From positions 1 through 13,199 of IMG/VR virus record IMGVR_UViG_651053023_000013: 13,199 nucleotides of DNA, one strand, 5' to 3'. Made by a program: the position numbers and the translations under genes. This DNA comes from a virus. Taxonomy: Duplodnaviria > Heunggongvirae > Uroviricota > Caudoviricetes. The first letter of the stretch is position 1; every line of letters starts with the position of its first letter. Shown piece by piece: positions 1 through 13,199 of the stretch. Under the pieces are notes generated by a model, which saw only the letters and a list, made by a program, of their open reading frames with translations, was not told where the DNA came from and searched no databases.

Positions 1-160
1 AGTTTGCTCCTGCCATAACGTGAAGAAGCAATGACCTGGTGGTCCGTGACTTCCCTACGCTGGCATTATCCAGATCAGGTGATACGGGTATTTCTTACTG
101 ATTTTTGTTATCAGTTGATAATTAATAAGTTTTTCAGCAAACAAGAATTAAAAACTTCAA

Positions 161-184
161 AACTGACCACACAACTGACCACAC
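161..184. repeat. Perfect tandem direct repeat AACTGACCACAC x2 in an A/C-rich non-coding stretch
   Basis: Read directly: aactgaccacac at 161-172 and again at 173-184; no coding context. Confidence 0.6.
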
Positions 185-408
185 ATTTTGTTGAAGCTCT
201 ACGAACAAAGACGAACAATAACAAACAAAAGGGAAATTTGCTGGCAGTTTTGCTTAACCGTTATCATTTTTCGGCTATCCGTTATCAAGCTGGTGGATGA
301 TCACGGATAACCCGTTATGGGAATCCCCATATCGGCATCATGCCCACCAGCATGAAGTATTTTTCGCGGATGTAAAAATTTGACGGGGCGGGCGGTCCCA
401 TAAGCAAT

Positions 409-440
409 GGGGGGGTAGGGATTCCGCTCCCCCCCCTCCC
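409..440. other. G7 ... C8 homopolymer pair able to form a GC-rich stem-loop; T5 run follows about 10 nt downstream
   Basis: ggggggg (409-415) - tagggattccgct - cccccccc (429-436) - tccc, then gaatgcaattttt. Possible plus-strand intrinsic terminator or slippage-prone tract. Confidence 0.35.
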
Positions 441-474
441 GAATGCAATTTTTCTTATATATATACAAAACAGT

Positions 475-627
475 GCGGGTTATGCGGGTTAGCGGGTTAT
501 CTTCGCGTGCTAAGTATTTTTTATTCTTTAATATCAATGCGTTAAAAAATGATATGTTTGAATATTAGCCAAAACGTAACCCGCAAGACATTCAAAATAA
601 CCCGCAAATACCCCCCAAATAACCCAC
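475..627. repeat. Origin-like iteron module A: three abutting GCGGGTTAT copies, AT-rich spacer, three inverted ATAACCC(G/A)C copies at 21-22 bp phasing
   Basis: Direct copies at 475-483, 484-491, 492-500; AT-rich 501-574; inverted copies at 577-584, 597-605, 619-627. Same 9-mer and mirror-image layout as module B at 9640-9771. Confidence 0.6.
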
Positions 628-915
628 AACCCCATCAGGAAAATGGGGCCAGTGATGCCACCGAACGGCTGAATCTGGTAACGTTCTGTTGCCTGGTTGC
701 AGTTTGCGGGTCAGCAATACTGACGCACAAAGTTAGCCGTATGTGGCTGTGCGTCCACCAGCTACGCCGGAATGGGGTATTCCGTTTCAACGGAACAGGT
801 ATGACGAATATGATCGCACCTTCTCCCGAAAACGGGTTTGCCTGTTTCGGGAAAACGGGCACATGAAGCTGCATAGACATTTTCACTATTCAGGATCTGG
901 CGGGGGAGTTTCTCA

Positions 916-1085
916 ATTTCCACCGTTGGTGGAAATTAAACGAATACAGCGAGTTAGGACAAGGTGACTAATGGTCACTCTGTTGCTGCGTCACCATATT
1001 GATGATCCAGCCCTGTAGTCGCGCCACTTTTCCACCAATGGTGGAAAAGCCCACAGCAGGCCGCCCAGCCTCCCCCAATGGGGGA
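916..1085. repeat. Cluster of perfect palindromes sharing CCACC/GGTGG-type half-sites (candidate protein-binding sites)
   Basis: ATTTCCACC-gtt-GGTGGAAAT (916-936); GTGAC-aatg-GTCAC (965-978); CTTTTCCACCA-a-TGGTGGAAAAG (1027-1049); TCCCCCA-a-TGGGGGA (1071-1085). All read directly. Confidence 0.6.
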
Positions 1086-1190
1086 TTGTGGAAGAATCAA
1101 CGGGTTAGGCCTTAATCATCTGCGTAATCATAAGTAATCATAATGTTCATTCATCCAGCGCAATTTTGCGTTATCGGGAATATCAGCAAG

Positions 1191-1475
1191 TTACCGCCGC
1201 AACCGCTCCGGCTTCTTCCAGTGGTAAGTTATTTTTTCCTTCTCCCGGTACATCTCCACGCGGCGACGATATGACAACAACTCCAGAACTCTGATCCGTA
1301 TGTCGCGCATATCCACGCCGTTAAGCTCAATACCGTCACGGCGCATCACCTCAGCCACCACACGCGCGTAATTTTCGGCTATCACGCTGTCCGGCTGCGT
1401 GGCCTCCTGTTTGCCTGCTTCCTGGCTGATTCCGGTAATGCGGCGGATTATTTTTAGTAGTTCGGTTTCGCTCAC
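1191..1475 (-). CDS. Hypothetical small basic protein (94 aa) immediately downstream of the large terminase
   Basis: ORF starts with GTG 5 nt after the terL stop, with only a weak GGGG upstream; basic C-terminus; no recognisable motif. Confidence 0.35.
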   Translation of the reverse strand: MSETELLKIIRRITGISQEAGKQEATQPDSVIAENYARVVAEVMRRDGIELNGVDMRDIRIRVLELLSYRRRVEMYREKEKITYHWKKPERLRR

Positions 1476-1480
1476 TCTCG

Positions 1481-3142
1481 TTATACCCCATCAAACGCCG
1501 CAAGCCGCTCTTTGTGGCTGTCGCTCATATCGAATGCAAATTCCTCATGTTCTGCCTGGAATGTGCCAAACGCCATCAGCGCCGCAACGCTCGGGTCTAT
1601 CTTGTTGGATGATTTTTTCTTGTTCGGCTTGATATTGGCGTTCGCGTCACTCTGCATCACAACATTACTCATTGACCAGGCCAGCACCGGATCGCCACGA
1701 TGCACAATCACCTTCCGGTTAACAAAAACTTCGAACGATTTCGCCGCCGGACTGAAACGAAGGTATGTTTGCGGGAACGGCTCCACCTCAAATCCTGCCC
1801 CCTGTAGCTGCGTCCTCAGGTGCGTGGCGTTCCATGTATCGAAGCCCACCAGCCTGATATTGAAATTCTCTGCATCCGCCATGATGTCATCACGGATACG
1901 GTCATAATCAATGCAGTCACCCGGTGTTGTGCGTATCCAGCCCGCCTTTACCCACTGGCGATAGATGGCGCGGTTTTTATTGGCGGGGTTCTGTAGCTGA
2001 AACTCCGGCAGATAGTGACGGGAAACCAGCATAATCTTTTTACCGACCGGAAAGGCATAGCACACGCTGGAAATATCGCTGGTTGATGATAAGTCCAGCC
2101 CCGCGTAGCACTCCTGCCCGTATAAATCCGCCTCCGCGAACGTTCCGGCGCACTCCGCCCATGCACCGTTACCCATCCACGGCGTGGCCCCCTGACACCA
2201 GATATTGAATCGCTTGGTGAGCATTTCCACCCACTGCGACGGAATACCCCGCGCTTTCTGGATGGTTGAGGCCAGTTTTTCACGATCGACGGAAACATCG
2301 ATATTGGGATTCGCCTTTATCCACATCGCCGGATCGTCAACCTCGCTTTCATCATCCAGCTCGTAAATCAGCACGAACATGGATTCGTTCACCTCTTCAC
2401 CATCCAGTATCTGGCAGCAATAGTCGTAGTGTTGTTTACAGGCTGAAACAACGTTGCTCCCCGATGTGGTGATGGCAAATAATAACCCCTCCGGACGCGC
2501 CCCCATTCCCAGTTCAAGCGCGGAATAAACCCCGTTGTCAGGGTGCAGGTGATATTCATCCACAATGGCAAGACTCGGGTTTGTACCTTCAATGGTTGCC
2601 GCTTTTGCTGCCAGTGGCTTTAACAGGCTGTTGGTTTTCGGGTGTATCACCTTGTGTGCCTGAATATTTACCCGCTTTCGCAACGGTCGGGATAAAAGGC
2701 ACATCTGACGCGCATCATCAAACACGATCCGCGCCTGATCACGACTCACGGCGGCGGTGTAAATATCCTGCTGCCCGTTTTCCATAACCAGAAACCAGTT
2801 AGCCAGGATAGCGGCGACCGTGGATTTGGCATTTTTTCGCGGCACTTCAATGAATGCGCTGGTGTATTTGCGCCGTCCGGTGGCCTTAACCTTAAAGCCC
2901 AGGATGCACGCAAAGGCGAACTGCTGCCACGGCTCCAGCTCAATGGGGCTACCGCGCATTGCGCCTTTTACGTGCGGACACACCCTGGAAAAGGCAATAA
3001 ACCGCTCCACGACCTCCGGATCGAACGTGTAAAGGGGGTTTTCAAGGTCAGAAAAATACCGTTTAACGGCCTGTTTCAGTCGTTTACAGGCCGTAATTTT
3101 GCCGTTTTTTACGCCTTCTGCGTACTCATGCCAGGCGGTCAA
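1481..3142 (-). CDS. terL: Terminase large subunit (HK97-type, Terminase_1-like ATPase/nuclease)
   Basis: 553-aa ORF with a P-loop-like VPRKNAKST and conserved acidic blocks (LAIVDEYH, VLIYELDDESEVDD). Apparent TTG start at 3140-3142, preceded by GAGGA at 5-nt spacing and overlapping the terS stop by 17 nt. Confidence 0.9.
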   Translation of the reverse strand: MTAWHEYAEGVKNGKITACKRLKQAVKRYFSDLENPLYTFDPEVVERFIAFSRVCPHVKGAMRGSPIELEPWQQFAFACILGFKVKATGRRKYTSAFIEVPRKNAKSTVAAILANWFLVMENGQQDIYTAAVSRDQARIVFDDARQMCLLSRPLRKRVNIQAHKVIHPKTNSLLKPLAAKAATIEGTNPSLAIVDEYHLHPDNGVYSALELGMGARPEGLLFAITTSGSNVVSACKQHYDYCCQILDGEEVNESMFVLIYELDDESEVDDPAMWIKANPNIDVSVDREKLASTIQKARGIPSQWVEMLTKRFNIWCQGATPWMGNGAWAECAGTFAEADLYGQECYAGLDLSSTSDISSVCYAFPVGKKIMLVSRHYLPEFQLQNPANKNRAIYRQWVKAGWIRTTPGDCIDYDRIRDDIMADAENFNIRLVGFDTWNATHLRTQLQGAGFEVEPFPQTYLRFSPAAKSFEVFVNRKVIVHRGDPVLAWSMSNVVMQSDANANIKPNKKKSSNKIDPSVAALMAFGTFQAEHEEFAFDMSDSHKERLAAFDGV

Positions 3143-3481
3143 GCTCGTCCTCTTCCTCTGTTTCCGGTGGATTTCTGCGGCGACTTACCGGGTCAAAACC
3201 CAGCAAAGAAGCCATTTTGATCATTATTCTTTCCGCGTCAGCCTTTGCGCTCAGGGCGGGGTTTCTGCTCTCGCTGCCCTGACTGTTAACAATGCTGAAC
3301 CCGCGCGTGGCAAGGTCTTCGACGGCTTTGCGGTATATGGAGTAGTTAACGCAATAAGCTCCAGATTGCTCCAGTCGGCGGGGGTAAGGTCTTCCCGTCC
3401 GGAAAGCTGGCGCGATTTTTCCTTCCACTGCCTGACCGCGATTTCATCCAGGTAAGCGGGGGCTTTTGGTGGTCTTGCCAT
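3126..3481 (-). CDS. terS: Terminase small subunit, P27-like family, split across two reading frames (apparent -1 frameshift near 3345-3365)
   Basis: N-terminal part (ATG at 3479-3481, MARPPKAPAYLDEIAVRQWKE...LTPADWSNLEL) is in one frame and stops at 3251. The family-typical C-terminal part (AYCVNYSIYRKAVEDLATRG...MASLLGFDPVSRRRNPPETEEEDELDRLA) is in the adjacent frame and ends at 3126 overlapping terL. No slippery heptamer at the junction. Confidence 0.6.
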
Positions 3482-3599
3482 GTTCTTTTTTCGCCCAATT
3501 ATTTTCAAAAAAAATCCCGTGCACAAAAATTTGAGGAGGCGGTCGGTGTCCGGCAGGGACGGTTTGTCCTGAAAACCTCCCCCACCCCCTCTGACAGCC

Positions 3600-3785
3600 T
3601 CACCAGCGATTGCGAAAACATTCCATGACCTCGCGGTCACGGTCGGTTAATTGCTTCGCTGTGGTGCGTTCTGTGCGCCCTGTCCTGTTGGCTTTGTGCC
3701 CTGTCTCCTGTGTCTTCCATAAGTCACGCTGCCTTATCAGTCCACGTATCAGCCTGTTTTGCTCCTGTTCAGTCATCATCGCCAT
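3600..3785 (-). CDS. Hypothetical small basic protein (61 aa) between HNH and terS
   Basis: ATG at 3783-3785, 9 nt after the HNH stop; weak ribosome-binding site; no recognisable motif. Confidence 0.3.
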   Translation of the reverse strand: MAMMTEQEQNRLIRGLIRQRDLWKTQETGHKANRTGRTERTTAKQLTDRDREVMECFRNRW

Positions 3786-3796
3786 ACATCCAGTCG

Positions 3797-4210
3797 TTAC
3801 GGTGTGCCGCCCGTTCTTCCTGCTCGCGATACATGACCCGCCTTACGGTTCGCTTTCGTGGCTGGATCTTCCCGTGTCGTCTTACGGTTGTGGCACGTCT
3901 GGCACAATGCCTGGTGATTCCACTCAGGCCAGAAGAGAACATCACCGCCGCCATTGATGGGAATGATGTGATCCACCACAAGAGCTGGCGTATAAATCCC
4001 CTTAGCCAGACAACGCACGCATAACGGGTTTTTGCTCAGGTACAGGGCGCGGTATTTGTCCCACTGTCGGGAATACCCGCGCGCGCGGCGGTGTCCCCGT
4101 CTGGCATCCTCTGCACGCCATGCAGCCCGCCTGTGCTCTTCACACTTTCCGGACTTCACGCGCTTATTACAGCCCGGCTCAGTGCAGCGCCTTAATGGTT
4201 GCCACGGCAT
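3797..4210 (-). CDS. HNH endonuclease (packaging-associated)
   Basis: N-terminal Cys cluster CTEPGCNKRVKSGKCEEH, then HNH core VVDHIIPINGGGD ... WNHQALCQTCHNRKT. ATG at 4208-4210 overlaps the adaptor stop (ATGA). Confidence 0.9.
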   Translation of the reverse strand: MPWQPLRRCTEPGCNKRVKSGKCEEHRRAAWRAEDARRGHRRARGYSRQWDKYRALYLSKNPLCVRCLAKGIYTPALVVDHIIPINGGGDVLFWPEWNHQALCQTCHNRKTTREDPATKANRKAGHVSRAGRTGGTP

Positions 4211-4509
4211 CAGTACACCCCCACATCACGATAAACCGACCAGAGCGCAGAAATAGCCATAGGCAGTTCAGACTGCTCCACAGGTGAAACCGCTTCCCTG
4301 TTCTCGTACAGGAAAGCGATGTACATCAGGCAACCAACACGTATTGCCGGGGTAAATTCCAGCCCGTCTTCAAAACGTTTCCCGATATGCTTCTGGCAGG
4401 CTTCCAGCGCCGCATCGGTATACATTTTCAGAAGTTCGCCTTCTCCGGAAAAGTCATCAAGGCGAAGATGTGCCCTGACTTCATCAGGTGTAATTTTGTC
4501 TTCACTCAT
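4210..4509 (-). CDS. Head-tail adaptor/connector protein (HK97 gp6-like)
   Basis: MSEDKITPDEVRAHLRLDD...AIRVGCLMYIAFLYENRE matches the gp6-like pattern. ATG at 4507-4509 has an AGGTG Shine-Dalgarno and overlaps the portal stop by 8 nt. The tracked ORF start at 4596 is a GTG lying 95 nt inside the portal gene and is rejected. Confidence 0.7.
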   Translation of the reverse strand: MSEDKITPDEVRAHLRLDDFSGEGELLKMYTDAALEACQKHIGKRFEDGLEFTPAIRVGCLMYIAFLYENREAVSPVEQSELPMAISALWSVYRDVGVY

Positions 4510-5716
4510 CTTTTTCACCTTTAATTTCCACAGTCTGCTTCCATGCCTGGCTGAACTCGTCGCCACCTTCACGCGGCGGCATTCCCTCACGCTCACGGGC
4601 TTCGTTCGGATTCATGATCCCGTTCTTAATCCCTTTCTCATACGTGGCGTAACGTTCAGTAGGTGTGGCGCGCAGTAAATCGGCTGAATCAAACTCAACC
4701 AGATAACGGGTACCAGGTACGGGAGAAGCCACCAGCAAAGCGGCCTTGATTTGCTGTTCGAAGTTCGCCAGCCACGGACGCATTGTCATAGTCAGAAACG
4801 CGCGGCTTGCCTCACTGAAATTGCTGTAGGTGCTGTTGCTGTATTCCTGCAGAAAAATCGGCGACACGTTGAACATCCGGGCGATGTCTTCAATGGAGAA
4901 GCGACGGGAGGCCAGCCATTCCGCATCCTGGTTACTCATCCCCAGTTGCTTGTAATCCATGCCCCCTTCAAGGATTGGCGTTTTTCCGGCATTTTTCGCC
5001 CCCTTGTAGCGTTCCAGTGCGTCTAATGCCTGTTTACCTTTCACGCCGTCCAGCCATTCGCCTGACGTGATAATCCCTGCCGCCATCATGCCATCTTTCA
5101 TAATGCTGGCTCCGTGACGCTGTTGAGCAAGGCCAAGCCCCAGCGCCTCACGGCAAATCGTGATGGGGGAGCGTCCCAGAAAGCCATCATCCGAGGCATA
5201 GCGGAGATGCAGAACTTCTTCCTGTAAATACGTGCGCACCGTTCCTGTACAGGGTTCGGTGATGGTATAGCGGTATTTGTGTGCGCCTGTGCGTTCCGGT
5301 ACAACACACCCCGGCGCATAAGGATGAAGTGATTTTGGCTGACCGTCCCGCCCCCATTCAATAACCGCATAGGCGTTACCGTTCAGCAGGCAGTGACGCA
5401 TCATTGTGCGTTTAAACTGGTAAGGTGTCTGGCACGAATTAGGCTGCTCATTCAGCAGAATATCTACCGGATGACTGTCCAGCCATTCCCGCGCCTCCCT
5501 GCCCTTGTCATTACGTACCAGATACAGATAACACGGCATCGTGGCCACCGCCTCAGCGATGACGGAAACCGCGTTCATCACTGCGGGCAATGATTCAGCC
5601 GTCCCGGCAGAAACATATTCTCCGGATCCGGTATTCGGTACGCCGGACAGCACCAGAAAATCATCAATGGACAGGTTACGTTGCTCGCTTTTTTTACGAC
5701 TAAAAGGCCACCACAT
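4502..5716 (-). CDS. Portal protein (HK97 family)
   Basis: About 405 aa from ATG at 5714-5716 (MWWPFSRKK...), which follows the protease stop by one base (TGA-T-ATG). The longer tracked ORF begins at a TTG inside the protease gene. Confidence 0.85.
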   Translation of the reverse strand: MWWPFSRKKSEQRNLSIDDFLVLSGVPNTGSGEYVSAGTAESLPAVMNAVSVIAEAVATMPCYLYLVRNDKGREAREWLDSHPVDILLNEQPNSCQTPYQFKRTMMRHCLLNGNAYAVIEWGRDGQPKSLHPYAPGCVVPERTGAHKYRYTITEPCTGTVRTYLQEEVLHLRYASDDGFLGRSPITICREALGLGLAQQRHGASIMKDGMMAAGIITSGEWLDGVKGKQALDALERYKGAKNAGKTPILEGGMDYKQLGMSNQDAEWLASRRFSIEDIARMFNVSPIFLQEYSNSTYSNFSEASRAFLTMTMRPWLANFEQQIKAALLVASPVPGTRYLVEFDSADLLRATPTERYATYEKGIKNGIMNPNEAREREGMPPREGGDEFSQAWKQTVEIKGEKDE

Positions 5717-5717
5717 A

Positions 5718-6278
5718 TCACAACCCCGCCAGCTCTGCCCAGCGATGACGATTATTTCCTGCCGGGCGTAATTCAGGGTGCTGTGCAAACAACGAACGGT
5801 GGGCAATCTCCACGCCAGATTCGGGATAAGCAGGCATCGACGTGATCGTGATTTCCCTGAGTTCTGCAGCGGTAACAGTACGCAGATACGGTTTTTGCGC
5901 GATATTCCACTCTTCGCATAATGCGCGAAAGCCAAAGCTCATCCCTGTAATGTCGCCACGCTCCACCAGCGTAAGCACATCTTTTCCAAGCTGGGTATCA
6001 GGCGGTGTCAGTTCAAAACGTAGCCCGGTGTTGTCCTCAGTCAGTACCAGAGTGCCGGATTTGGTGCGCCCCAGCAGTTGGGTATAGTCATGCTCATACA
6101 GGCAGCGCACATCATTACCCGCCGCCAGATAGTCAGCAAAAGCCCCCGGCGTGAACTGTTCGCGGAATTCGTCCCAGATAATTTCTGAAAGGCTGTTCCA
6201 GCGAACGGCATACCCCACCAGCTTTTTATTGCTGGCGGTCAGTTCAGATGTGCGGATTTCAAAATCGGTGTTTTTCAT
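5718..6278 (-). CDS. Prohead maturation protease (HK97 family, S78/U35-like)
   Basis: 186 aa, placed between capsid and portal; typical HK97 protease length and sequence character. ATG at 6276-6278. Confidence 0.85.
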   Translation of the reverse strand: MKNTDFEIRTSELTASNKKLVGYAVRWNSLSEIIWDEFREQFTPGAFADYLAAGNDVRCLYEHDYTQLLGRTKSGTLVLTEDNTGLRFELTPPDTQLGKDVLTLVERGDITGMSFGFRALCEEWNIAQKPYLRTVTAAELREITITSMPAYPESGVEIAHRSLFAQHPELRPAGNNRHRWAELAGL

Positions 6279-6332
6279 CGGTGTACTCCATAAAGCTGAA
6301 AAAGGAGGCCGCAGCCTCCTCCTTACTCATGA

Positions 6333-7502
6333 CTAGCCAGCTTTCATTTCCAGAATTTTGATGGCGTTTGAATCCACCACACCACCGCCCAGATATTTAT
6401 CCGTGTGGACCTTGTAGAATCCGGGTTCAGTAATGTTGTCCGGTCGGGTGCGAATCCCTGTTACATGATCAACGATGAAATAACCACGACTGAAATCGCC
6501 AACCGCTAGCGGTGCTTTTCCTGCGCCGATGTCCGGCATGGACTCCAGGCAGAAAACAGGACGACCAAGCAACATATCCGGCGCACCTTCTTTAAGGCTG
6601 TCGCGCCAGATATAATCGCCATTCTCATTTTTCAGCTTCTGTAGTGTCCCTGCCGTGCCCGAGTTCATCACCCAGACGGCATTTTTGCGGTATTTCGCTT
6701 TCAGCTTGTAGAGAATGTCGATCAGTTCGTCCGCTGTAATGGCGGTTCCACTTGCCGCTACCACTTTTTCAATGGTGCCAAAAGCGCGGGTTTTGTCACT
6801 GGTCGCCGCACGGGTGTAAGCCATGAAGCCTTTCGGCTTGCCGTTACCGTCGCCATTAACAAAATCATCCTCTTCGGTGCTGGCGAACGTGTCGGCAATT
6901 TCGGAGGATAACCAGCCCAAAATATCCACCTCTGAAAAATCCAGGATTTCCTGCGTGGTTTTCGGGTAGGCGTAGATCTGATTCAGCTTGATGGTTACAC
7001 GTTCAATTTTCGGGGTGTTGGTTTCACTACGTGCGCTGCCTTCTGTGCCTCGTCCTACAGTTGCGCCGCCAGTGGAAACCAGTTTCTGAAACTCATTTGA
7101 TTTTGCGGTCTTCACGGTCGCGATCACGCGCATAACACTGTCATCCTGTAGCTGGCGCATGACTTCGCGATCAAGCTCAGGAATTACGGTATATCCGCCA
7201 TCCCTGCCGCTGTCAGTGCTGGTGGACAGTGATCGCACATCTCCGGTTACGATGTAGTTACGCAATTCATCAGATGATAATTTCTGGATGCCCGTTCCTG
7301 GCTTGCTGCGTTCTTCATCAGCCACAGACTCGAGGCGGTAAATTTCTGTGTCGAGGGAATCGGCTTTTGCACGCAGTTCATCAAACTGTTTGCCCTCGTC
7401 ATCGTTCAGGCTGCGGTTTTCACTGTCGGCTTTTTCCAGCAGGGATCGCATCTGGTTTTTCAGGGCGGTTTTTTGCTGGCGGAGTTCGATTAATTTCTTC
7501 AT
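6333..7502 (-). CDS. Major capsid protein (HK97 fold) with N-terminal coiled-coil delta/scaffold domain
   Basis: 389 aa; N-terminal heptad-rich region (MKKLIELRQQKTALKNQMRSLLEKADSENRSL...) followed by an HK97-type capsid body. ATG at 7500-7502. Confidence 0.9.
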   Translation of the reverse strand: MKKLIELRQQKTALKNQMRSLLEKADSENRSLNDDEGKQFDELRAKADSLDTEIYRLESVADEERSKPGTGIQKLSSDELRNYIVTGDVRSLSTSTDSGRDGGYTVIPELDREVMRQLQDDSVMRVIATVKTAKSNEFQKLVSTGGATVGRGTEGSARSETNTPKIERVTIKLNQIYAYPKTTQEILDFSEVDILGWLSSEIADTFASTEEDDFVNGDGNGKPKGFMAYTRAATSDKTRAFGTIEKVVAASGTAITADELIDILYKLKAKYRKNAVWVMNSGTAGTLQKLKNENGDYIWRDSLKEGAPDMLLGRPVFCLESMPDIGAGKAPLAVGDFSRGYFIVDHVTGIRTRPDNITEPGFYKVHTDKYLGGGVVDSNAIKILEMKAG

Positions 7503-7572
7503 GAAGGTTTTCTCGTATTGGTTAAGATTCAGGACGTGAAACCAACACGGAGGGAGCGCCGCCCGACACTCT

Positions 7573-7621
7573 CGGCATCTCGCAGATCAACCCGGCATCG
7601 CGCAGGGGGTCAGGCGGCATT
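7573..7621. promoter_or_regulatory. Three direct CGGCAT(C) repeats at 20-22 bp phasing upstream of the capsid operon (candidate activator sites for a late promoter)
   Basis: cggcatctcgcag (7573-7585), cggcatcgcgcag (7593-7605), cggcatt (7615-7621), in a GC-rich block 70-120 bp upstream of the capsid ATG. No good sigma70 -35/-10 lies between the block and the ATG. Confidence 0.35.
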
Positions 7622-7726
7622 GTGGCGGCTCACGTCTGAGTGCCACACGCCAACATATACATAAAAATCAGTATGTAAACATCAGCCAGAATCACCGAAC
7701 AACCTGGAACAACCACGAACAAATAA

Positions 7727-7757
7727 TTTACAAAACCTGAAAAAAATGGCCTATTAT
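7727..7757 (+). promoter_or_regulatory. Putative sigma70 promoter of the AT-rich accessory gene
   Basis: TTTACA (7727-7732), 19-bp spacer, TATTAT (7752-7757); AGGA ribosome-binding site 6 nt before the ATG at 7789. Spacer is longer than optimal. Confidence 0.3.
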
Positions 7758-7788
7758 TGCTACCTCTGACTACAACAAAGGACGCATC

Positions 7789-8295
7789 ATGAATTTAAGC
7801 GCAATGGTATACCCTGATACTTTCATAATTAATGGCGAATCATTTAAAGGTAAAAGAAACGCAAAAGAAAACAAGGTATTAATTCCATATACAAATGAAC
7901 CGGAAGTAACTATTGGTCAACACATTATCCAGTGTGTCGGTAAAAACGAGATAAATCTAAAAATTATAGATATGAAGTTGCTTCCCAATGGAACCCTCAG
8001 ACAGGGAACCAACCATCCAAATATGTTGACGCTCTATATTGAAAATATCACGGGAAATGAACATATGACGCCACCTAAAAGTAATACATTTAACATTGGT
8101 TCAATTAGTGGTAATCAAGTGCAGATAGGTGAGCATAACCATATGCTGGTAAACATCAGCATCACTGAACTGGTTGAAAAAGTCTCTAAATCGGGGGATG
8201 TACAAGCCAAATCAGTATTAAAGCAGTTACTGGAAAACAGTACCGTTGCCAGCATTGTTGGGGCTGGCGCAAGTGCCTTAATAGGCTTACTGTAA
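7789..8295 (+). CDS. Unrecognised 168-aa protein with C-terminal hydrophobic glycine-zipper segment; AT-rich accessory gene (moron)
   Basis: Only credible plus-strand gene inside the island. Roughly one-third GC by eye against about half in neighbouring genes. Own promoter, ribosome-binding site and terminator. C-terminal ...NSTVASIVGAGASALIGLL is a likely membrane anchor. Internal NIGSISGNQVQIGEHNH is not assignable from memory. Confidence 0.7.
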   Translation: MNLSAMVYPDTFIINGESFKGKRNAKENKVLIPYTNEPEVTIGQHIIQCVGKNEINLKIIDMKLLPNGTLRQGTNHPNMLTLYIENITGNEHMTPPKSNTFNIGSISGNQVQIGEHNHMLVNISITELVEKVSKSGDVQAKSVLKQLLENSTVASIVGAGASALIGLL

Positions 8296-8303
8296 AAAAA
8301 TGA

Positions 8304-8320
8304 CCTGGAGAAAATCCAGG
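8304..8320. terminator. Bidirectional intrinsic terminator between convergent genes
   Basis: Stem CCTGGA (8304-8309), loop gaaaa, stem TCCAGG (8315-8320). On the minus strand it is followed by T7 (complement of A7 at 8294-8300); on the plus strand by an interrupted T-rich run. Confidence 0.5.
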
Positions 8321-8331
8321 CCTTTATCGCT

Positions 8332-8580
8332 TTATTGTTTCACTGGATCCCGCATTCTGCGTCTTATTTTCCACAGATATTCGATCATCGCTTCCACCTG
8401 CTCACGATTGGTTGCGAAAATTTCCCCGGTCAGTGAGCTGCGCAGAAAATCATGATGATCCACAACAAACAACGCATCGGAAGAAAGCAGACGGCGATAT
8501 TTTTTTGCTGTCGTGGTTTCCAGATCATCAAAACCATGAAACTTTTTATGTTGCTGGACTTCTTCAAATGTCACTGGCAT
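8332..8580 (-). CDS. Hypothetical protein (82 aa), translationally coupled to the ProQ/FinO-like gene
   Basis: ATG at 8578-8580 overlaps the stop of the upstream ORF by 10 nt; no recognisable motif. Confidence 0.45.
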   Translation of the reverse strand: MPVTFEEVQQHKKFHGFDDLETTTAKKYRRLLSSDALFVVDHHDFLRSSLTGEIFATNREQVEAMIEYLWKIRRRMRDPVKQ

Positions 8581-9113
8581 GTATCCCCCTTTGCTGCCCG
8601 GCGCTGGCGCTTGTGCTTCTCATTCAGCGCCATCAGCCGCGTTTCTGCCTCCTGCTGTTCCTGTGGTGTCACTTCCCCACATGGCTGGCCTTTCAGGTCG
8701 TATCGTACCCCACCAGCAACCAGGGCGCGGTAATAGCGCGGAGACTGCGCATAAGATGCCAGCGTCGCACGTAATGCCCCCGGCCCGAATGCCAGCCCCC
8801 TGACGGCGAGATCCTGCATCAGGTCGTCGAATATCCCCACCTTAAGCGGCTTCGGTGCTTCCCTGTTGAATAAGTCAGGCCACATCTCAGTGAGGCGGTT
8901 AACGCGCCTGCGGTTTTTGCGCTGGCGTTTGGTCATATGCCGCCACGGTGTCACCCCTGTGGGCTGCCCTTTGCGGCTCTGCTGTGCGTTCTGATTGCCG
9001 GGTATCACTTTATGCGCCGATGTGGTTTTATCCCGCTCTTGCGCCGCCTGCGTCGTTTTCTGCGGCGTGCCGTAAATGCCTTTCGGTTTTCGGTTAATGG
9101 TCAGCTTTGTCAT
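8571..9113 (-). CDS. ProQ/FinO-domain RNA-binding protein with an N-terminal basic, Q-rich extension of about 75 aa
   Basis: PLKVGIFDDLMQDL...LRATLASYAQSPRYYRALVAGGVRYDLKGQPCGEVTPQEQQEAETRL aligns by eye to the N-terminal FinO domain of E. coli ProQ (PLKIGIFQDL...LRSALRLYTSSWRYLYGV...[24 protein letters not shown]). ATG at 9111-9113 with a GGGGAAGG ribosome-binding site. Confidence 0.75.
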   Translation of the reverse strand: MTKLTINRKPKGIYGTPQKTTQAAQERDKTTSAHKVIPGNQNAQQSRKGQPTGVTPWRHMTKRQRKNRRRVNRLTEMWPDLFNREAPKPLKVGIFDDLMQDLAVRGLAFGPGALRATLASYAQSPRYYRALVAGGVRYDLKGQPCGEVTPQEQQEAETRLMALNEKHKRQRRAAKGDTCQ

Positions 9114-9149
9114 GCCTTCCCCTGTAATTACTCTGTTCGCTGTTGTGAA

Positions 9150-9575
9150 TTAAAACGGTATGTTATCCCCGTACAGGTCATCGTGCTGGCCTGTCTGTTG
9201 TTTTGCCCTGTTCAGTGCGTCAGTGGCCTGCCCCTGTTGGCCTTTTTTGCCGCCCGGTCGCGCCGTTCTCGCACTGATTACGCTGTCTGCGATGACCTGC
9301 CAGCCCTGCCGCGTTTCGCCGTTCTGCCCTGTCCACTGGCTTACCTGCATGTTACCCGCCACGTTCACCAGTTCGCCTTTGCGGTGTTTTGCCAGTGCGT
9401 CGGCCTGTCTGCCAAACGCCAGGACGGATAACCACATCGTCGCCGTTCCGTCATCTGCCTGGCTGCATGGCAGGGGAACCGCCATACTCGCCATCGCCAT
9501 TTGTGTTCCCTTGCTGGTGGTCTTTAACTGCGGGTCAGCCACCAGCCGCCCGTAAGCCGCTATCTGTGCTGTCAT
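9150..9575 (-). CDS. ssb: Single-stranded DNA-binding protein (short, divergent SSB)
   Basis: 141 aa; OB-fold-like N-terminal pattern (GRLVADPQL ... WLSVLAFGRQADALAKHRKGELVNVAGNMQVSQWTGQNGETRQGWQVIADSV), Gly/Gln-rich linker and acidic tail ending DDLYGDNIPF (compare DDDIPF in E. coli SSB). Confidence 0.75.
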   Translation of the reverse strand: MTAQIAAYGRLVADPQLKTTSKGTQMAMASMAVPLPCSQADDGTATMWLSVLAFGRQADALAKHRKGELVNVAGNMQVSQWTGQNGETRQGWQVIADSVISARTARPGGKKGQQGQATDALNRAKQQTGQHDDLYGDNIPF

Positions 9576-9639
9576 GCTGTCTGCTCTCCGGTTTTAACGT
9601 TGATGGTTACGCTTGTTTACACCCTTACGGTGAAATTCT

Positions 9640-9771
9640 GCGGGTTATAATCGCACTTTTGCGGGTTATAACTGCCGTTTTGCGGGTTACGTGCGGGTTA
9701 TTGATTTCCTTTTTATTCATACAGTTAATGCACTTATATACATGATAACCCGCATAACCCGCATAACCCGC
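9640..9771. repeat. Origin-like iteron module B: four GCGGGTTA(T/C) copies at 21/21/11 bp phasing, AT-rich spacer, three abutting ATAACCCGC copies; immediately downstream of the primase-helicase gene
   Basis: Direct copies at 9640-9648, 9661-9669, 9682-9690, 9693-9701; AT-rich 9702-9744; inverted copies at 9745-9753, 9754-9762, 9763-9771. The primase stop is at 9795-9797. Confidence 0.7.
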
Positions 9772-9794
9772 AACTTTTCACCTCACACAGGGGG

Positions 9795-11918
9795 TTAATC
9801 TTCTGCCTCAGGCTGGAACATCAGCACGTAAAAAACATGCTGCTTCCCCCCAATTTTGCCGAGCGCCTTTTTCTTGTAACGGCGATCGTTACCCGCTTCC
9901 AGCATTCCGGCAGCACTCAACGCGCGGGCAAAGTGAGACGGATTAAATCCCTGTGCTATCTCACCCTCAAATACATGCGGGAACGTGTAAAAACGGAACT
10001 CGTCATCTTCGTTTCTGATACTCCCCTTTCTGTATCCGGCAAGCTCTTTAATCGGTAAATCACGCTCGTCGGTGTTGGGCCACGGAAGGTATCTGCTGAA
10101 TCCGAACGACGCTAAAAAAGCCTCTGCCTGTTCAACCATCTGTTTAAACTCCCTGTTACCCGTGCCGAACTCCTTCACCCAGGCATTAAAATTATGCTGA
10201 ATGGCATCGCGGCACGCCTGAACATCCCAACCAGTAATATGGACGGAAAGCACCAGCGCCGACTCCAGCATGGCGAATCGTTCCCCCACACGGTGAACCT
10301 GTTCGCCGTAACTCTCCGGTATCAGGTTGCGCCACCGTTCACGGCATGCCCTTACCGTATCCTTTGCCTCCTGCTGGTGGTCTGCCAGCCATTTAACCCA
10401 TTCACGCCCCGCCGCCCCGTGATTTTCTGTCCAGGCATCCTTTAACGCGTCTGCGTGTGCCTTTCCGGTGCTGTATTCGTGAAACTGCGTGGCTTTTTCC
10501 ATTGGCACGTTAAGCAGGCGGACAAGCTGCCCCGCCTTGACTTTTATCCCCTCCGTTTTGAGGAATGTCTCAACGTCCATTTCTCCGGTGCTGATTGCCA
10601 CCGTGCGCCAGTGTTTGATCTCCCTGTTGCCGCCGTCCTTCGCCCCCTGTAATTTCCCCGAACCGTTAAACAGCGTATAAGCCGACGTGGACACTTCCCG
10701 CGCGTTTCCGGCCTGACCTATTTCATCCAGGGGTAATAGCCCGTCATTGTGCGCCTCTGCCTCGTTGGCGATGCCTAACGCTGTACCGTACCAGGTCAGC
10801 CGTTGCGCGTCCGGCTCTCCCCATAAACTGGATGCGATGTTCTGTGTGGTGGTTTTCCCTGCCGATGACTGTTCGAAAAGATGTACCCCGAAGCCGTCAG
10901 CACCCACCAGCCCGATTAATGGTGCGGATAACGATACCGCCACACCCAGCATCATGGACGGATTACCACCAGCCAGCCGCGCAACGATATCGCGCCAGCC
11001 CTCCGCCGTTCCTGCCACGGAATAGCCATTAACAGCAGCCGTTTTTCCGGTAAACAGGACTGGCTTTTCGCAATCACCAATGACCGAACCGTCCGGCATG
11101 ATGTACGCGCCAAAATGCCAGCCCGTTGTTGTGCTTAACTGCCATTCCTCATGGCTTCCGCTTAACTGCATCCAGTCAGCCAGGATAGCCCTGTATTTAC
11201 CGTTGGTTGTTACGTTCAGTCCGTGGTCTTTCAGCAACCGCCAGCCGTCACGGTCGCCAATGCCACCGCACGGAACCGCCATTGTGATGACTTCATGGTT
11301 TGCTAATTTTTTCCAGCGCATCACGCGGTAATGCTCTTTACCGATTGTCCCCGTTCCCAGTAGTTCAAGCGGGGAACATAACCACGTCTCAGGCCGGATA
11401 ATTTCGCCTGACTGCTTATCCACTTTTGGCGTTACCCAGAAAACACCATCGGCGCGACTTTCAACGCGGGGCTTTAATTCATCATCGCCCTGGATTTCTG
11501 TGATTTTTTTCTTTAAGGGCAACACCAGACTTTCCCCGCGCTCGTATTCGTCTTTGAGGCGAGGCAACTGGTCGGATAAATCCGCCGGGCTGATGTCAGT
11601 TATCCCCGCGTATTCGTATACGGTCTTCACGCCAGCCACAGCCAGCAACGTGACGATCTGTGTAAGGCTACGTTCAGTGATGTGCCCTGCGCGGTAAACA
11701 CGCACACACTGACGGCTATCATCAATAATTTGATAACCGGTAATATCTTTCAGGTGTTCATCTGACAGAACGACAGGCGGCACATTGTCGGCGGCAATAT
11801 GCTTACCTGCCCATTCCTGCCACTCTTTCGCATGGCTCCACGCATCACTACCCGCAAAGATGATAACCTCCGTCATTTTGTCGGCTGGCTGGTGCTTTAA
11901 GTTTGGTGCGCGCTTCAT
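9795..11918 (-). CDS. Replication initiator: Toprim-like primase N-terminus plus DUF927/SF3-type helicase-like domain
   Basis: 707 aa; P-loop FEQSSAGKTTTQNIASSLWG and Walker B-like LLPLDEIGQAG; N-terminal region resembles a Toprim primase fold. ATG at 11916-11918 overlaps the upstream stop (ATGA). The iteron module follows directly. Confidence 0.8.
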   Translation of the reverse strand: MKRAPNLKHQPADKMTEVIIFAGSDAWSHAKEWQEWAGKHIAADNVPPVVLSDEHLKDITGYQIIDDSRQCVRVYRAGHITERSLTQIVTLLAVAGVKTVYEYAGITDISPADLSDQLPRLKDEYERGESLVLPLKKKITEIQGDDELKPRVESRADGVFWVTPKVDKQSGEIIRPETWLCSPLELLGTGTIGKEHYRVMRWKKLANHEVITMAVPCGGIGDRDGWRLLKDHGLNVTTNGKYRAILADWMQLSGSHEEWQLSTTTGWHFGAYIMPDGSVIGDCEKPVLFTGKTAAVNGYSVAGTAEGWRDIVARLAGGNPSMMLGVAVSLSAPLIGLVGADGFGVHLFEQSSAGKTTTQNIASSLWGEPDAQRLTWYGTALGIANEAEAHNDGLLPLDEIGQAGNAREVSTSAYTLFNGSGKLQGAKDGGNREIKHWRTVAISTGEMDVETFLKTEGIKVKAGQLVRLLNVPMEKATQFHEYSTGKAHADALKDAWTENHGAAGREWVKWLADHQQEAKDTVRACRERWRNLIPESYGEQVHRVGERFAMLESALVLSVHITGWDVQACRDAIQHNFNAWVKEFGTGNREFKQMVEQAEAFLASFGFSRYLPWPNTDERDLPIKELAGYRKGSIRNEDDEFRFYTFPHVFEGEIAQGFNPSHFARALSAAGMLEAGNDRRYKKKALGKIGGKQHVFYVLMFQPEAED

Positions 11919-12229
11919 TTTGCCTTTCCCCGTTCACGAATAATTTCACGTACTGCCTTAATGCGTTCCATTCCTGTAACGCGCATGATTCTGTCGATGT
12001 CGCTTAATTCTGCTGGTGGTGCTTTACTTACCAAGGTGAACTCCCTGTCAAAGCGCATATGTGACGACACGCAGGGATGCGCATAACCTTCGCGGATATA
12101 GGTCACACGAAAATCATCGACGGTTTTGATCGTTATCGTGCTGCCGTATTTATCCTGGAAAATATCGCCGGGGCGGATTTCAGGCCGAGCGGGGCCGCTG
12201 GCAGTAAAGCCAGAATTTTTCTTTTTCAT
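11915..12229 (-). CDS. Hypothetical protein (104 aa), translationally coupled to the primase-helicase
   Basis: ATG at 12227-12229 with GGAG at 8-nt spacing; stop overlaps the primase start; no recognisable motif. Confidence 0.5.
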   Translation of the reverse strand: MKKKNSGFTASGPARPEIRPGDIFQDKYGSTITIKTVDDFRVTYIREGYAHPCVSSHMRFDREFTLVSKAPPAELSDIDRIMRVTGMERIKAVREIIRERGKAK

Positions 12230-12234
12230 GTTTT

Positions 12235-12453
12235 TTACTCCAGAGGCAGCTTTTTAGCGGCGAGCTCAATATCAGATGTCAGAGAAACCTGTGTATTTGC
12301 CAGGTCTAACAACAAAGAAATAAGAATTTCTTCTCTGCTATCGGATTTATCGGTGCTAAGGCTGTTCATCCACATATTGACGACTTCCCTGATTTTTTTC
12401 GCAGAGTGCAGGGCTTCAAATGCCAGGTCTTCAATATCATGTTTATTTCGCAT
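12235..12453 (-). CDS. Hypothetical small protein (about 72 aa)
   Basis: Preferred ATG at 12451-12453 (MRNKHDIEDL...) with a GGGGG ribosome-binding site, overlapping the upstream stop by 11 nt. The tracked ORF start at 12483 is TTG. Confidence 0.4.
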   Translation of the reverse strand: MRNKHDIEDLAFEALHSAKKIREVVNMWMNSLSTDKSDSREEILISLLLDLANTQVSLTSDIELAAKKLPLE

Positions 12454-12805
12454 AATCGCCCCCGCCATTTTCACAATCAGCAATCAGGATGGCTTTTGCC
12501 TCATTCAGCGCCATATCAGCACTAAATTGCATAACAGCCAGTGAGTGAGGAACGAAAGCCCCGGCATATTCTGTTTCGCTGGTGGCCTCAATGGTAATCA
12601 CACGCGGTTGTGCCGTGCTCAGGGCGATAAAACGCCAGATGTATTTATTCAGGTTGTGCAAGTCCCGCCCTTGCGGGTGTGTGGTATGATTTAACATAGC
12701 TACCTCGATAATCTTGCTATCGTTGGTGGTTAGAAGCCCGGTTAGTGTTAGCGCACTGCCGGGTTTCGTCGTTTGTATTTCAATAAAACCATTGGTGTGT
12801 TTCAT
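12443..12805 (-). CDS. Hypothetical protein, first gene of the replication-side operon (120 aa from ATG 12805; alternative start 12697 gives 84 aa)
   Basis: ATG at 12803-12805 sits inside an operator-like inverted repeat and has no Shine-Dalgarno. An internal ATG at 12695-12697 has a GAGGT ribosome-binding site. The tracked extension to 13186 is Ser/Thr-rich and antisense to the plus-strand regulator. Confidence 0.45.
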   Translation of the reverse strand: MKHTNGFIEIQTTKPGSALTLTGLLTTNDSKIIEVAMLNHTTHPQGRDLHNLNKYIWRFIALSTAQPRVITIEATSETEYAGAFVPHSLAVMQFSADMALNEAKAILIADCENGGGDYAK

Positions 12806-12875
12806 GTTATTTTGGAGTGAAACACACGTCAAGCCTTTTTTGTATTTCTTTTTTGTGTATACTGAAACACACCAA
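12792..12875. promoter_or_regulatory. Divergent control region with three copies of TGAAACACAC (one inverted, two direct) and a -10-like TATACT
   Basis: GTGTGTTTCA (12795-12804, overlapping the minus-strand ATG), TGAAACACAC (12818-12827) and TGAAACACACCAA (12863-12875). The first and third share 13 bp in opposite orientation. TATACT at 12858-12863. Confidence 0.5.
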
Positions 12876-12893
12876 ATTTGAGGAGTTTCAGTT

Positions 12894-13199
12894 ATGGCGA
12901 CTACCAACAAAAACGCTAAATCACAATTGACCACCGTCAGAGTCCCCCACGATGTTATGGAGGGCATGGAATCCGTAAAACTGGACGGCGAAAGCAACGC
13001 CGGATTCATAGTAACCGCCATGCGCGGTGAGATCGCCCGCCGCCAGGCAGAAGGAAGCGGAGAAAATCCCCTGGTTTCTTCGCTCGATGCACTGGCGCAG
13101 GTGGAAAAAATTGGAGTCAAGGCTGCCGAGGAGATCGGGCAACTCGTCGCCGTCGCGCGTGAAGAACTCCAGCGCCGCAAGGCCAAAGAATCAGAATAA
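12894..13199 (+). CDS. Putative ribbon-helix-helix-type DNA-binding regulator (101 aa), divergent from the replication operon
   Basis: Strong ribosome-binding site GAGGAG (12880-12885), 8 nt before the ATG. N-terminus LTTVRVPHDVMEGMESVKL...NAGFIVTAMRGEIARRQ fits a beta-strand/helix/helix pattern; helical C-terminal extension. Fold assignment is by pattern only. Confidence 0.45.
   Translation: MATTNKNAKSQLTTVRVPHDVMEGMESVKLDGESNAGFIVTAMRGEIARRQAEGSGENPLVSSLDALAQVEKIGVKAAEEIGQLVAVAREELQRRKAKESE

Follow-up and report, generated by a model that had tools for sequence, protein, structure and literature searches.

A FinO-domain protein gene in the replication operon of an Escherichia coli phage satellite, and a candidate antisense RNA ligand

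The stretch of DNA analysed here, 13,199 nucleotides long and called the window throughout, is IMG/VR virus record IMGVR_UViG_651053023_000013 (positions 1 to 13,199), and its architecture is that of a capsid-forming phage-inducible chromosomal island (cf-PICI, a form of PICI) of Escherichia coli UMNF18. The subject is a gene for a 180-aa protein near the end of the island's replication operon, referred to as the FinO-like gene, together with an un-annotated antisense RNA at the head of the same operon. The protein is probably a FinO-domain RNA-binding protein of FinO-like layout that is carried as facultative replication-operon cargo of the PICI and, by analogy with its studied relatives, binds a terminator-type hairpin, for which the antisense RNA would be the likeliest ligand in cis. 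The domain assignment is in itself ordinary and already stands in RefSeq as a 'ProQ/FINO family protein'; the interest rests on the testable link to an antisense RNA that is both un-annotated and widespread, and on the linkage to PerC.

Results

The FinO domain and its RNA-contact residues

A sequence-only reading of the window had placed a ProQ/FinO domain in the C-terminal two-thirds of the 180-aa protein by eye, and had set two results beforehand as counting against it, the lack of a profile match and a predicted structure without the FinO fold; both analyses were run and the protein passed each. Pfam PF04352 (ProQ/FinO) matches residues 68-172 with an E-value of 9.2e-25 and 87.2 bits (gathering cut-off 27), which covers profile positions 5-108 of 109, and no second domain was reported in the Pfam search: the protein has a single domain, in its C-terminal two-thirds. 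Compared with the PDB, a family profile of 40 sequences matched ProQ (5nb9, 4e-19) and FinO (1dvo, 4e-17), and also RocC and NMB1681. In the AlphaFold2 model the mean predicted local distance difference test score (pLDDT) lies at 87-94 for the 10-residue blocks between residues 61 and 170 and below 50 for residues 10-54. The modelled elements are helices at 62-77, 94-105, 111-122 and 125-133, strands at 136-138 and 144-147, and a helix at 150-176, that is, the helical domain and small beta-hairpin of the FinO fold. When the model was searched against the PDB with Foldseek, all 26 matches at E <= 0.001 were FinO-domain structures, with target TM-scores of up to 0.85 and rmsd values of 2.1-2.4 A.

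The residues expected to contact RNA are also retained. K91, R115, Y127 and R137 correspond to K35, R58, Y70 and R80 of ProQ, and among 40 homologues K91 and R137 are conserved in 100%, Y127 in 97% and R115 in 95%. In ProQ, R58A and R80A strongly cut RNA binding, Y70S/F lowers the binding of both RNAs assayed and K35A chiefly that of SibB (PMC7192607).

The N-terminal extension

The same reading had described a basic, low-complexity N-terminal extension, which is borne out by the composition of residues 1-75 (19 Lys and Arg against 2 Asp and Glu, pI 12). Conservation along it is uneven: residues 1-15 (MTKLTINRKPKGIYG) and the basic segment 56-75 have a mean identity of 0.76-0.79, equal to that of the domain, and residues 16-55 one of 0.49. 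Given that residues 1-75 are basic and mostly disordered, the layout resembles that of plasmid FinO and not that of ProQ, and the dimensions agree with the FinO-like layout that had been suggested: the domain starts at residue 71, compared with residue 77 in pSLT FinO, and the protein has 180 residues compared with 187. No homology between the extension and that of FinO was seen by BLAST. Two resemblances noted by eye, LT[LI]xRK near the N terminus and P-W-[KR] before the basic stretch, were set aside as weak, and W57 is kept in only 72% of homologues.

An antisense RNA at the head of the operon

The first gene of the operon is Icd-like, and a structured RNA on the opposite strand is complementary to its leader of about 100 nt, its GAGG ribosome-binding site and its ATG at 12697 (Table 1). 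The fold of this RNA has a z-score of -5.8. Across 30 distinct variants 95% of the cells are paired and 10 pairs carry compensatory double changes, values that none of 500 shuffles reached; in each of 73 variants out of 73 the better fold is that of the plus strand, and G-U cells number 137 against 11 A-C cells. A covariance model of the RNA scores 80-98 bits in related islands. The first stem-loop is nearly invariant and carries an anti-Shine-Dalgarno sequence; the second (SL2) is hypervariable in sequence with its structure kept, and is followed by the U-rich tail. The element is present in 1284 of 5426 complete E. coli genomes, and none of 25 records sampled across the ranking annotates it as an RNA.

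By analogy, the geometry matches that of FinP/traJ and SymR/symE, and the island has in one element what a FinOP-like system possesses, a cis-antisense RNA with a terminator hairpin over the ribosome-binding site of a regulatory gene. FinO domains bind intrinsic-terminator hairpins (PMC12001967), and because they bind such hairpins with 3' tails the antisense RNA is the best candidate for a ligand in cis. It is nevertheless a core feature of PICIs and not specific to the FinO-like gene.

A second class of antisense RNA was observed at L004 6077-6159 (-) and L023 10475-10556 (+), in which the first stem-loop differs (AUAAUCGUUACCUCGUUUAACGGUU, loop CCUC) and the second has the same architecture; L023 has both classes.

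No curated Rfam family scored above threshold, the sub-threshold matches being symR (33.6 bits against 61) and the thiamine pyrophosphate (TPP) riboswitch only, and a C4-type RNA was not found in the Rfam search, although the neighbouring gene is Icd-like. A literature search for PICI antisense RNAs or for links between SymR and ProQ gave nothing useful. Terminator-like matches clustered on the plus strand inside the FinO-like gene were rejected as candidates, being antisense T runs opposite Lys/Arg/Asn codons.

Distribution and genomic contexts of the FinO-like gene

DNA related to the FinO-like gene occurs in 1168 of the 5426 complete E. coli genomes, about a fifth, with up to nine matching places per genome, and all 1649 places are chromosomal; plasmid FinO proteins are about 30% identical to the 180-aa protein, over the domain only. 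A scan of genome contigs yielded 6 loci only. Two contexts were distinguished. The first is the replication module of PICIs, both capsid-forming and classical, with the order primase (DUF927 or other), single-stranded DNA-binding protein (SSB), FinO-like gene, which recurs in PICIs of E. coli, E. albertii and Pantoea; in E. ruysiae (L004) matches were obtained to DUF4222, the FinO-like gene and PerC, and none to SSB or DUF927. The second comprises other integrative islands with AlpA-like, H-NS-like and YagK/YfjJ neighbours, where the gene frequently encodes an N-terminally shortened protein (114 aa) or has become a pseudogene; these copies make up most of the DNA matches of 60-80% identity. 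In islands of this type (L010, L140, L141) the H-NS-like gene lies 0.9-4.3 kb from the FinO-like gene.

Within the window, the RefSeq feature table and the origin that was found confirm the placement of the gene in a satellite replication operon, at its distal end. The FinO-like gene is facultative cargo in the slot after ssb and the penultimate gene of this operon. In cf-PICIs the slot just before the packaging module is a variable region (bioRxiv 10.1101/2025.02.11.637232).

The neighbouring genes orf82 and PerC

The overlapping downstream gene, orf82, had been proposed as a coupled partner of the FinO-like gene. This proposal fails on distribution and gene context, as the co-occurrence is not conserved: orf82 is found in 135 of the 5426 genomes compared with the 1168 of the FinO-like gene; E. 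coli 042 has the same orf82 (WP_001145405, product 96% identical by tblastn) preceded by a PerC-family gene and not by a FinO-like one; further loci besides 042 have orf82 after PerC, and in L107 it directly follows the SSB gene. The PerC-family gene of 042 replaces the FinO-like gene exactly, the two islands differing over 8591-9149; from 8590, shortly before orf82 begins, the window is again homologous to the PerC-bearing island. Given this context and distribution and the point at which homology resumes, the 10-nt overlap is therefore a cassette junction; a dedicated module of the two genes is not supported, and orf82 is a neighbouring cassette in its own right.

The habitual companion of the FinO-like gene, if there is one, is PerC. 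Among 17 FinO-like-positive loci on viral contigs the gene immediately downstream is PerC-like in 13 and orf82 in two. The remaining two (L053, L084) have a weaker PerC-like match about 0.45 kb downstream and resemble P0050-type islands, in which a different 138-aa open reading frame (ORF) overlaps the FinO-like gene. In E. coli L138 the FinO-like and PerC-like genes overlap by 4 nt. The UMNF18 island has either lost PerC or never had it.

The family of orf82 is real, consisting of proteins of about 80 aa with 49 representatives at E <= 0.001 in a 50%-identity cluster library and a conserved motif, DHH..LR..SGE..AT..EQ. Searches of Pfam, the PDB and PADLOC gave it no assignment, the sole marginal match being N.BspD6I (E 0.0012 over 35 residues), and its AlphaFold2 model is poor (pLDDT 52).

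Organisation of the island

The island lies in the E. coli UMNF18 chromosome (NZ_AGTD01000001.1), with 100% identity over the 2.2 kb compared (window 7600-9800), and the window covers most of it; according to the RefSeq feature table the insertion site is between thiM and rcnR, and the integrase gene and an AlpA-type helix-turn-helix gene of the island are both immediately outside the window. The order on the minus strand is Icd-like gene, 82-aa hypothetical protein, DUF4222, DUF927 primase/helicase, origin, SSB, FinO-like gene, orf82 and a bidirectional terminator, which closes the operon after orf82 and also closes a convergent 168-aa gene. No tail genes are present in the island by ORF list, Pfam or RefSeq feature table. 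From the SSB gene to the start of the FinO-like gene there is a gap of 36 nt with a GGGGAAGG ribosome-binding site, which leaves little room for a promoter of its own (no separate promoter scan was made).

Table 1. Coordinates of the features discussed; positions are those of the window unless a locus is named
Feature	Position	Strand	Remarks
Bidirectional intrinsic-terminator hairpin	8302..8322	.	GGCCTGGATTTTCTCCAGGTC then T run
orf82, 82-aa protein	8332..8580	-	phrog_1957; 10-nt overlap with the FinO-like gene (ATGCCAGTGA)
FinO-domain protein gene, 180 aa (FinO-like gene)	8571..9113	-	RefSeq WP_000164226.1; Pfam, PDB profile, AlphaFold2/Foldseek
Basic helix (RQRKNRRRVNRL), FinO domain and long C-terminal helix	8586..8945	-	codons 57-176
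Basic N-terminal extension	8946..9113	-	codons 1-56; disordered at residues 10-54 (pLDDT <50); variable Q/T/K-rich linker
SSB gene	9150..9575	-	Pfam SSB; directly upstream of the FinO-like gene
Probable replication origin	9636..9772	.	three tandem GCGGGTTAT iterons, AT-rich spacer, four inverted copies; between the primase and SSB genes
DUF927 primase/helicase-type replication protein	9795..11918	-	Pfam DUF927, 157.8 bits
Icd-like gene, first gene of the operon	12443..12697	-	phrog_6196; true start likely ATG 12697, per annotation of related islands
Extended -10 TGgTATGAT	12682..12690	+	kept in 6 of 6 aligned islands; would start the RNA near 12696-12698
Structured cis-antisense RNA, un-annotated	12696..12783	+	two stem-loops, U-rich tail; predicted 3' end near 12770-12785; fold, covariation and strand tests
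Promoter-like site of the Icd-like/replication operon	12804..12832	-	TTGACG, 17 nt, TAACAT; leader would be about 100 nt, covered by the antisense RNA
FinO-like and PerC-family gene pairs	L138 5001-5815; L139 5001-5818; L004-L006		PerC immediately downstream
Short (114-aa) or pseudogenised FinO-like genes, non-PICI islands	L010 9016-9360; L140 5016-5357; L141 4846-5360		beside AlpA-like and YagK/YfjJ ('inovirus Gp2') genes

Several further observations concern the island itself. A perfect 10-bp inverted repeat, GTGTGTTTCA / TGAAACACAC (window 12795-12827), lies in the spacer of the operon's promoter-like site and touches both the -35 and the -10; related islands have other repeats at the same place, and these differences between islands at the operon promoter suggest island-specific operators. 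The convergent 168-aa gene (window 7789-8295, +, phrog_5789) is found in UMNF18 and 042 and is absent from the otherwise near-identical EC416 island; a PADLOC search gave no match to it, and it is accessory cargo of a variable slot. A second variable slot is formed by about 850 bp (window 630-1478) between TerL and a conserved block at 434-629, beyond the packaging module; this segment is missing from the related islands L002 and L003 and contains an ORF at 1191-1475 (94 aa, phrog_1561). Both terS (3357) and an HNH gene (3836) are frameshifted by single-base indels relative to two intact relatives, and RefSeq flags both; this copy of the island may be packaging-defective, or the old assembly may have errors. 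At the edge of the island, which abuts the thiM leader, the TPP-riboswitch match lies upstream of thiM (window 35-126, -) and has only 31.7 bits, the gathering score being 54.3. The near-identical cf-PICI of EC416 and of 042 (the flanks of L002 and L003) interrupts the gene for the large subunit of a prophage terminase, leaving two partial coding sequences.

Discussion

The favoured explanation joins the protein, its place in the operon and the antisense RNA. The protein would open with a basic, mostly disordered extension some 55 residues long, followed by a basic helix, the FinO domain and, at the C terminus, a long helix. The distal position of its gene in an early/replication operon suggests that it would be made upon induction of the island, and by analogy with every studied FinO-domain protein it would grip the base and the 3' tail of a terminator-type hairpin, the basic extension presumably promoting RNA-RNA pairing or protecting the RNA. 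More speculatively, the RNA bound might be the antisense RNA that covers leader, ribosome-binding site and start codon of the Icd-like gene, and binding might thereby exert feedback on the replication operon. This specific cis target, drawn from analogy, is plausible but rather doubtful. Unlikely, though worth stating, is the fuller form of the idea, in which protein and antisense RNA would constitute a FinOP-like post-transcriptional switch that sets the level or timing of the satellite replication operon after helper induction; islands without the protein would then rely on host ProQ. The precedent for action in cis comes from FinO, FopA and PcnR, which are all encoded on mobile elements and all target an antisense RNA or a leader that belongs to the element in question (PMC9977716).

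A number of results weigh against this explanation. In the protein, the equivalent of ProQ K54 is Pro and that of L71 is Tyr, and the scores against the NCBIfam models for FinO (NF010317, 64.7 bits, cut-off 136) and for the ProQ equivalog (NF003434, 58.6 bits, cut-off 127) are both below cut-off, so that the protein belongs to a separate subfamily. Among islands, the gene is optional: only 24 of 127 loci with the Icd-leader antisense-RNA motif carry it, and the co-inheritance and co-adaptation of protein and RNA that a FinOP-like system should display are thus not seen. The sequence types of SL2 are common to islands with and without the gene, and in two FinO-like-positive PICI loci, L005 and L139, the covariance-model search found no antisense RNA; the antisense RNA could also be a client of host ProQ in every island. 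A k-mer contrast of 17 FinO-like-positive with 64 negative islands returned a single large enriched block, which is the gene with a short flank (8588-9161), and no separate non-coding element that co-segregates with it; three other short enriched runs lie inside the DUF927 and DUF4222 coding regions. Nor was an unusually stable structure found within the cassette, the best z-score being -2.9 of 136 windows (8250-9350, both strands).

The lack of a co-segregating element in the k-mer contrast, and the fact that only a minority of islands with the same core carry the gene, raise the possibility that the protein acts in trans, as a moron-type regulator that binds RNAs of the host or helper phage or competes with host ProQ. 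As accessory cargo of this kind it would not control the island at all and would instead alter host physiology, virulence or the expression of helper genes, probably in concert with the PerC-like regulator. The tight linkage to PerC-family genes, which are adjacent in 13 of the 17 loci and overlap the FinO-like gene by 4 nt in L138, is in keeping with such a role, as are the variable slot before the packaging module (bioRxiv 10.1101/2025.02.11.637232), the truncated FinO-like copies in non-PICI islands and the known uptake of prophage and island RNAs by ProQ (PMC9977716). However, the little promoter space after ssb argues that expression is probably tied to island induction and not to the lysogenic state, those FinO-like proteins with N-terminal extensions that have been studied show high selectivity for the RNAs of their own element (PMC9977716), and no PADLOC defence match was obtained. 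Action in trans is a real possibility, though the less probable one.

It is also conceivable, if improbable, that the protein is a copy-number control of the PcnR type, which would bind a stem-loop in an mRNA leader or in a transcript that crosses the origin, without an antisense RNA, and so limit primase/SSB and over-replication. The gene lies directly after primase, origin and ssb, and PcnR represses repA through a leader stem-loop independently of antisense RNA, while FopA controls repZ (PMC9977716). Yet the fold scan over 8250-9350 revealed no conserved structure around ssb or the FinO-like gene, most islands with the same replication module do without the gene, and runaway replication after induction benefits satellites. 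That the gene is a mere passenger, decaying or neutral, without a present function in the UMNF18 island is very improbable. Such a reading might be suggested by the single-base indels that terS (3357) and HNH (3836) show on comparison with intact relatives, and by the truncated or pseudogenised copies in other islands, but the ORF is intact and recurs identically in other genomes, the domain and both N-terminal motifs are conserved in homologues down to 54% identity, and the RNA-contact residues are invariant or nearly so.

Plasmid FinO-domain proteins set conjugation and copy number, and the satellite subfamily, which is conserved and wired into a phage-satellite replication module, extends this theme to a third class of mobile element. 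Together with the widespread un-annotated antisense RNA at the operon head, the protein offers a candidate circuit that is testable. If the FinOP-like switch were true, PICI-type satellites would have their first described control circuit built on an RNA chaperone; if the protein instead worked in trans alongside the linked PerC-like regulator, the acquisition or induction of a satellite could change RNA regulation in the host, or virulence.

Comparison with known systems places the protein among, but apart from, the described members of the family. It is not ProQ in the strict sense, given the NF003434 score and the single domain in the C-terminal two-thirds: E. coli ProQ shares the FinO domain (5nb9, E 4e-19) and the residues K35, R58, Y70 and R80, whose equivalents are conserved, but begins with that domain and continues with a linker and a C-terminal domain, whereas here the domain follows the basic extension. 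RocC of Legionella and NMB1681, the minimal ProQ of Neisseria, are the best structural matches (target TM-score 0.81-0.85, rmsd about 2.1 A); both are chromosomal regulators of 26-33% sequence identity, RocC with a C-terminal extension and NMB1681 with almost none. ProQ/FinO-family genes have been reported among the accessory or maintenance genes of the E. cloacae PICI AVS0889 and of Vibrio episomal cf-PISP (cf-PICI-like) elements, with PerC as the alternative accessory gene in a sister island (PMC13612085, PMC13230959); these reports are annotation only, without functional work.

FopA of the IncI plasmid pCol1B9 and PcnR of IncI2 plasmids are FinO-domain proteins that control the replication of their own element, FopA through an antisense RNA (Inc/repZ) and PcnR through a leader stem-loop (repR/repA) (PMC9977716); the likeness, drawn from their description and without sequence comparison, is that the gene here also lies inside a replication module, and the difference is that this module belongs to a phage satellite with a primase-helicase and an iteron origin. 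FinO of F-like plasmids differs in that the gene here resides on a chromosomal satellite without tra genes; with NF010317 below its cut-off and all E. coli copies chromosomal, the protein is not FinO in the strict sense, and its pairing with the antisense RNA is a candidate one and not exclusive. Both proteins are encoded by mobile elements and have a FinO domain (30% identity over 100 residues), a near-equal length and a basic N-terminal extension of about 70 residues before the domain, and in both cases the same element has a two-stem-loop antisense RNA over the ribosome-binding site of a regulatory first gene, as in FinO/FinP/traJ.

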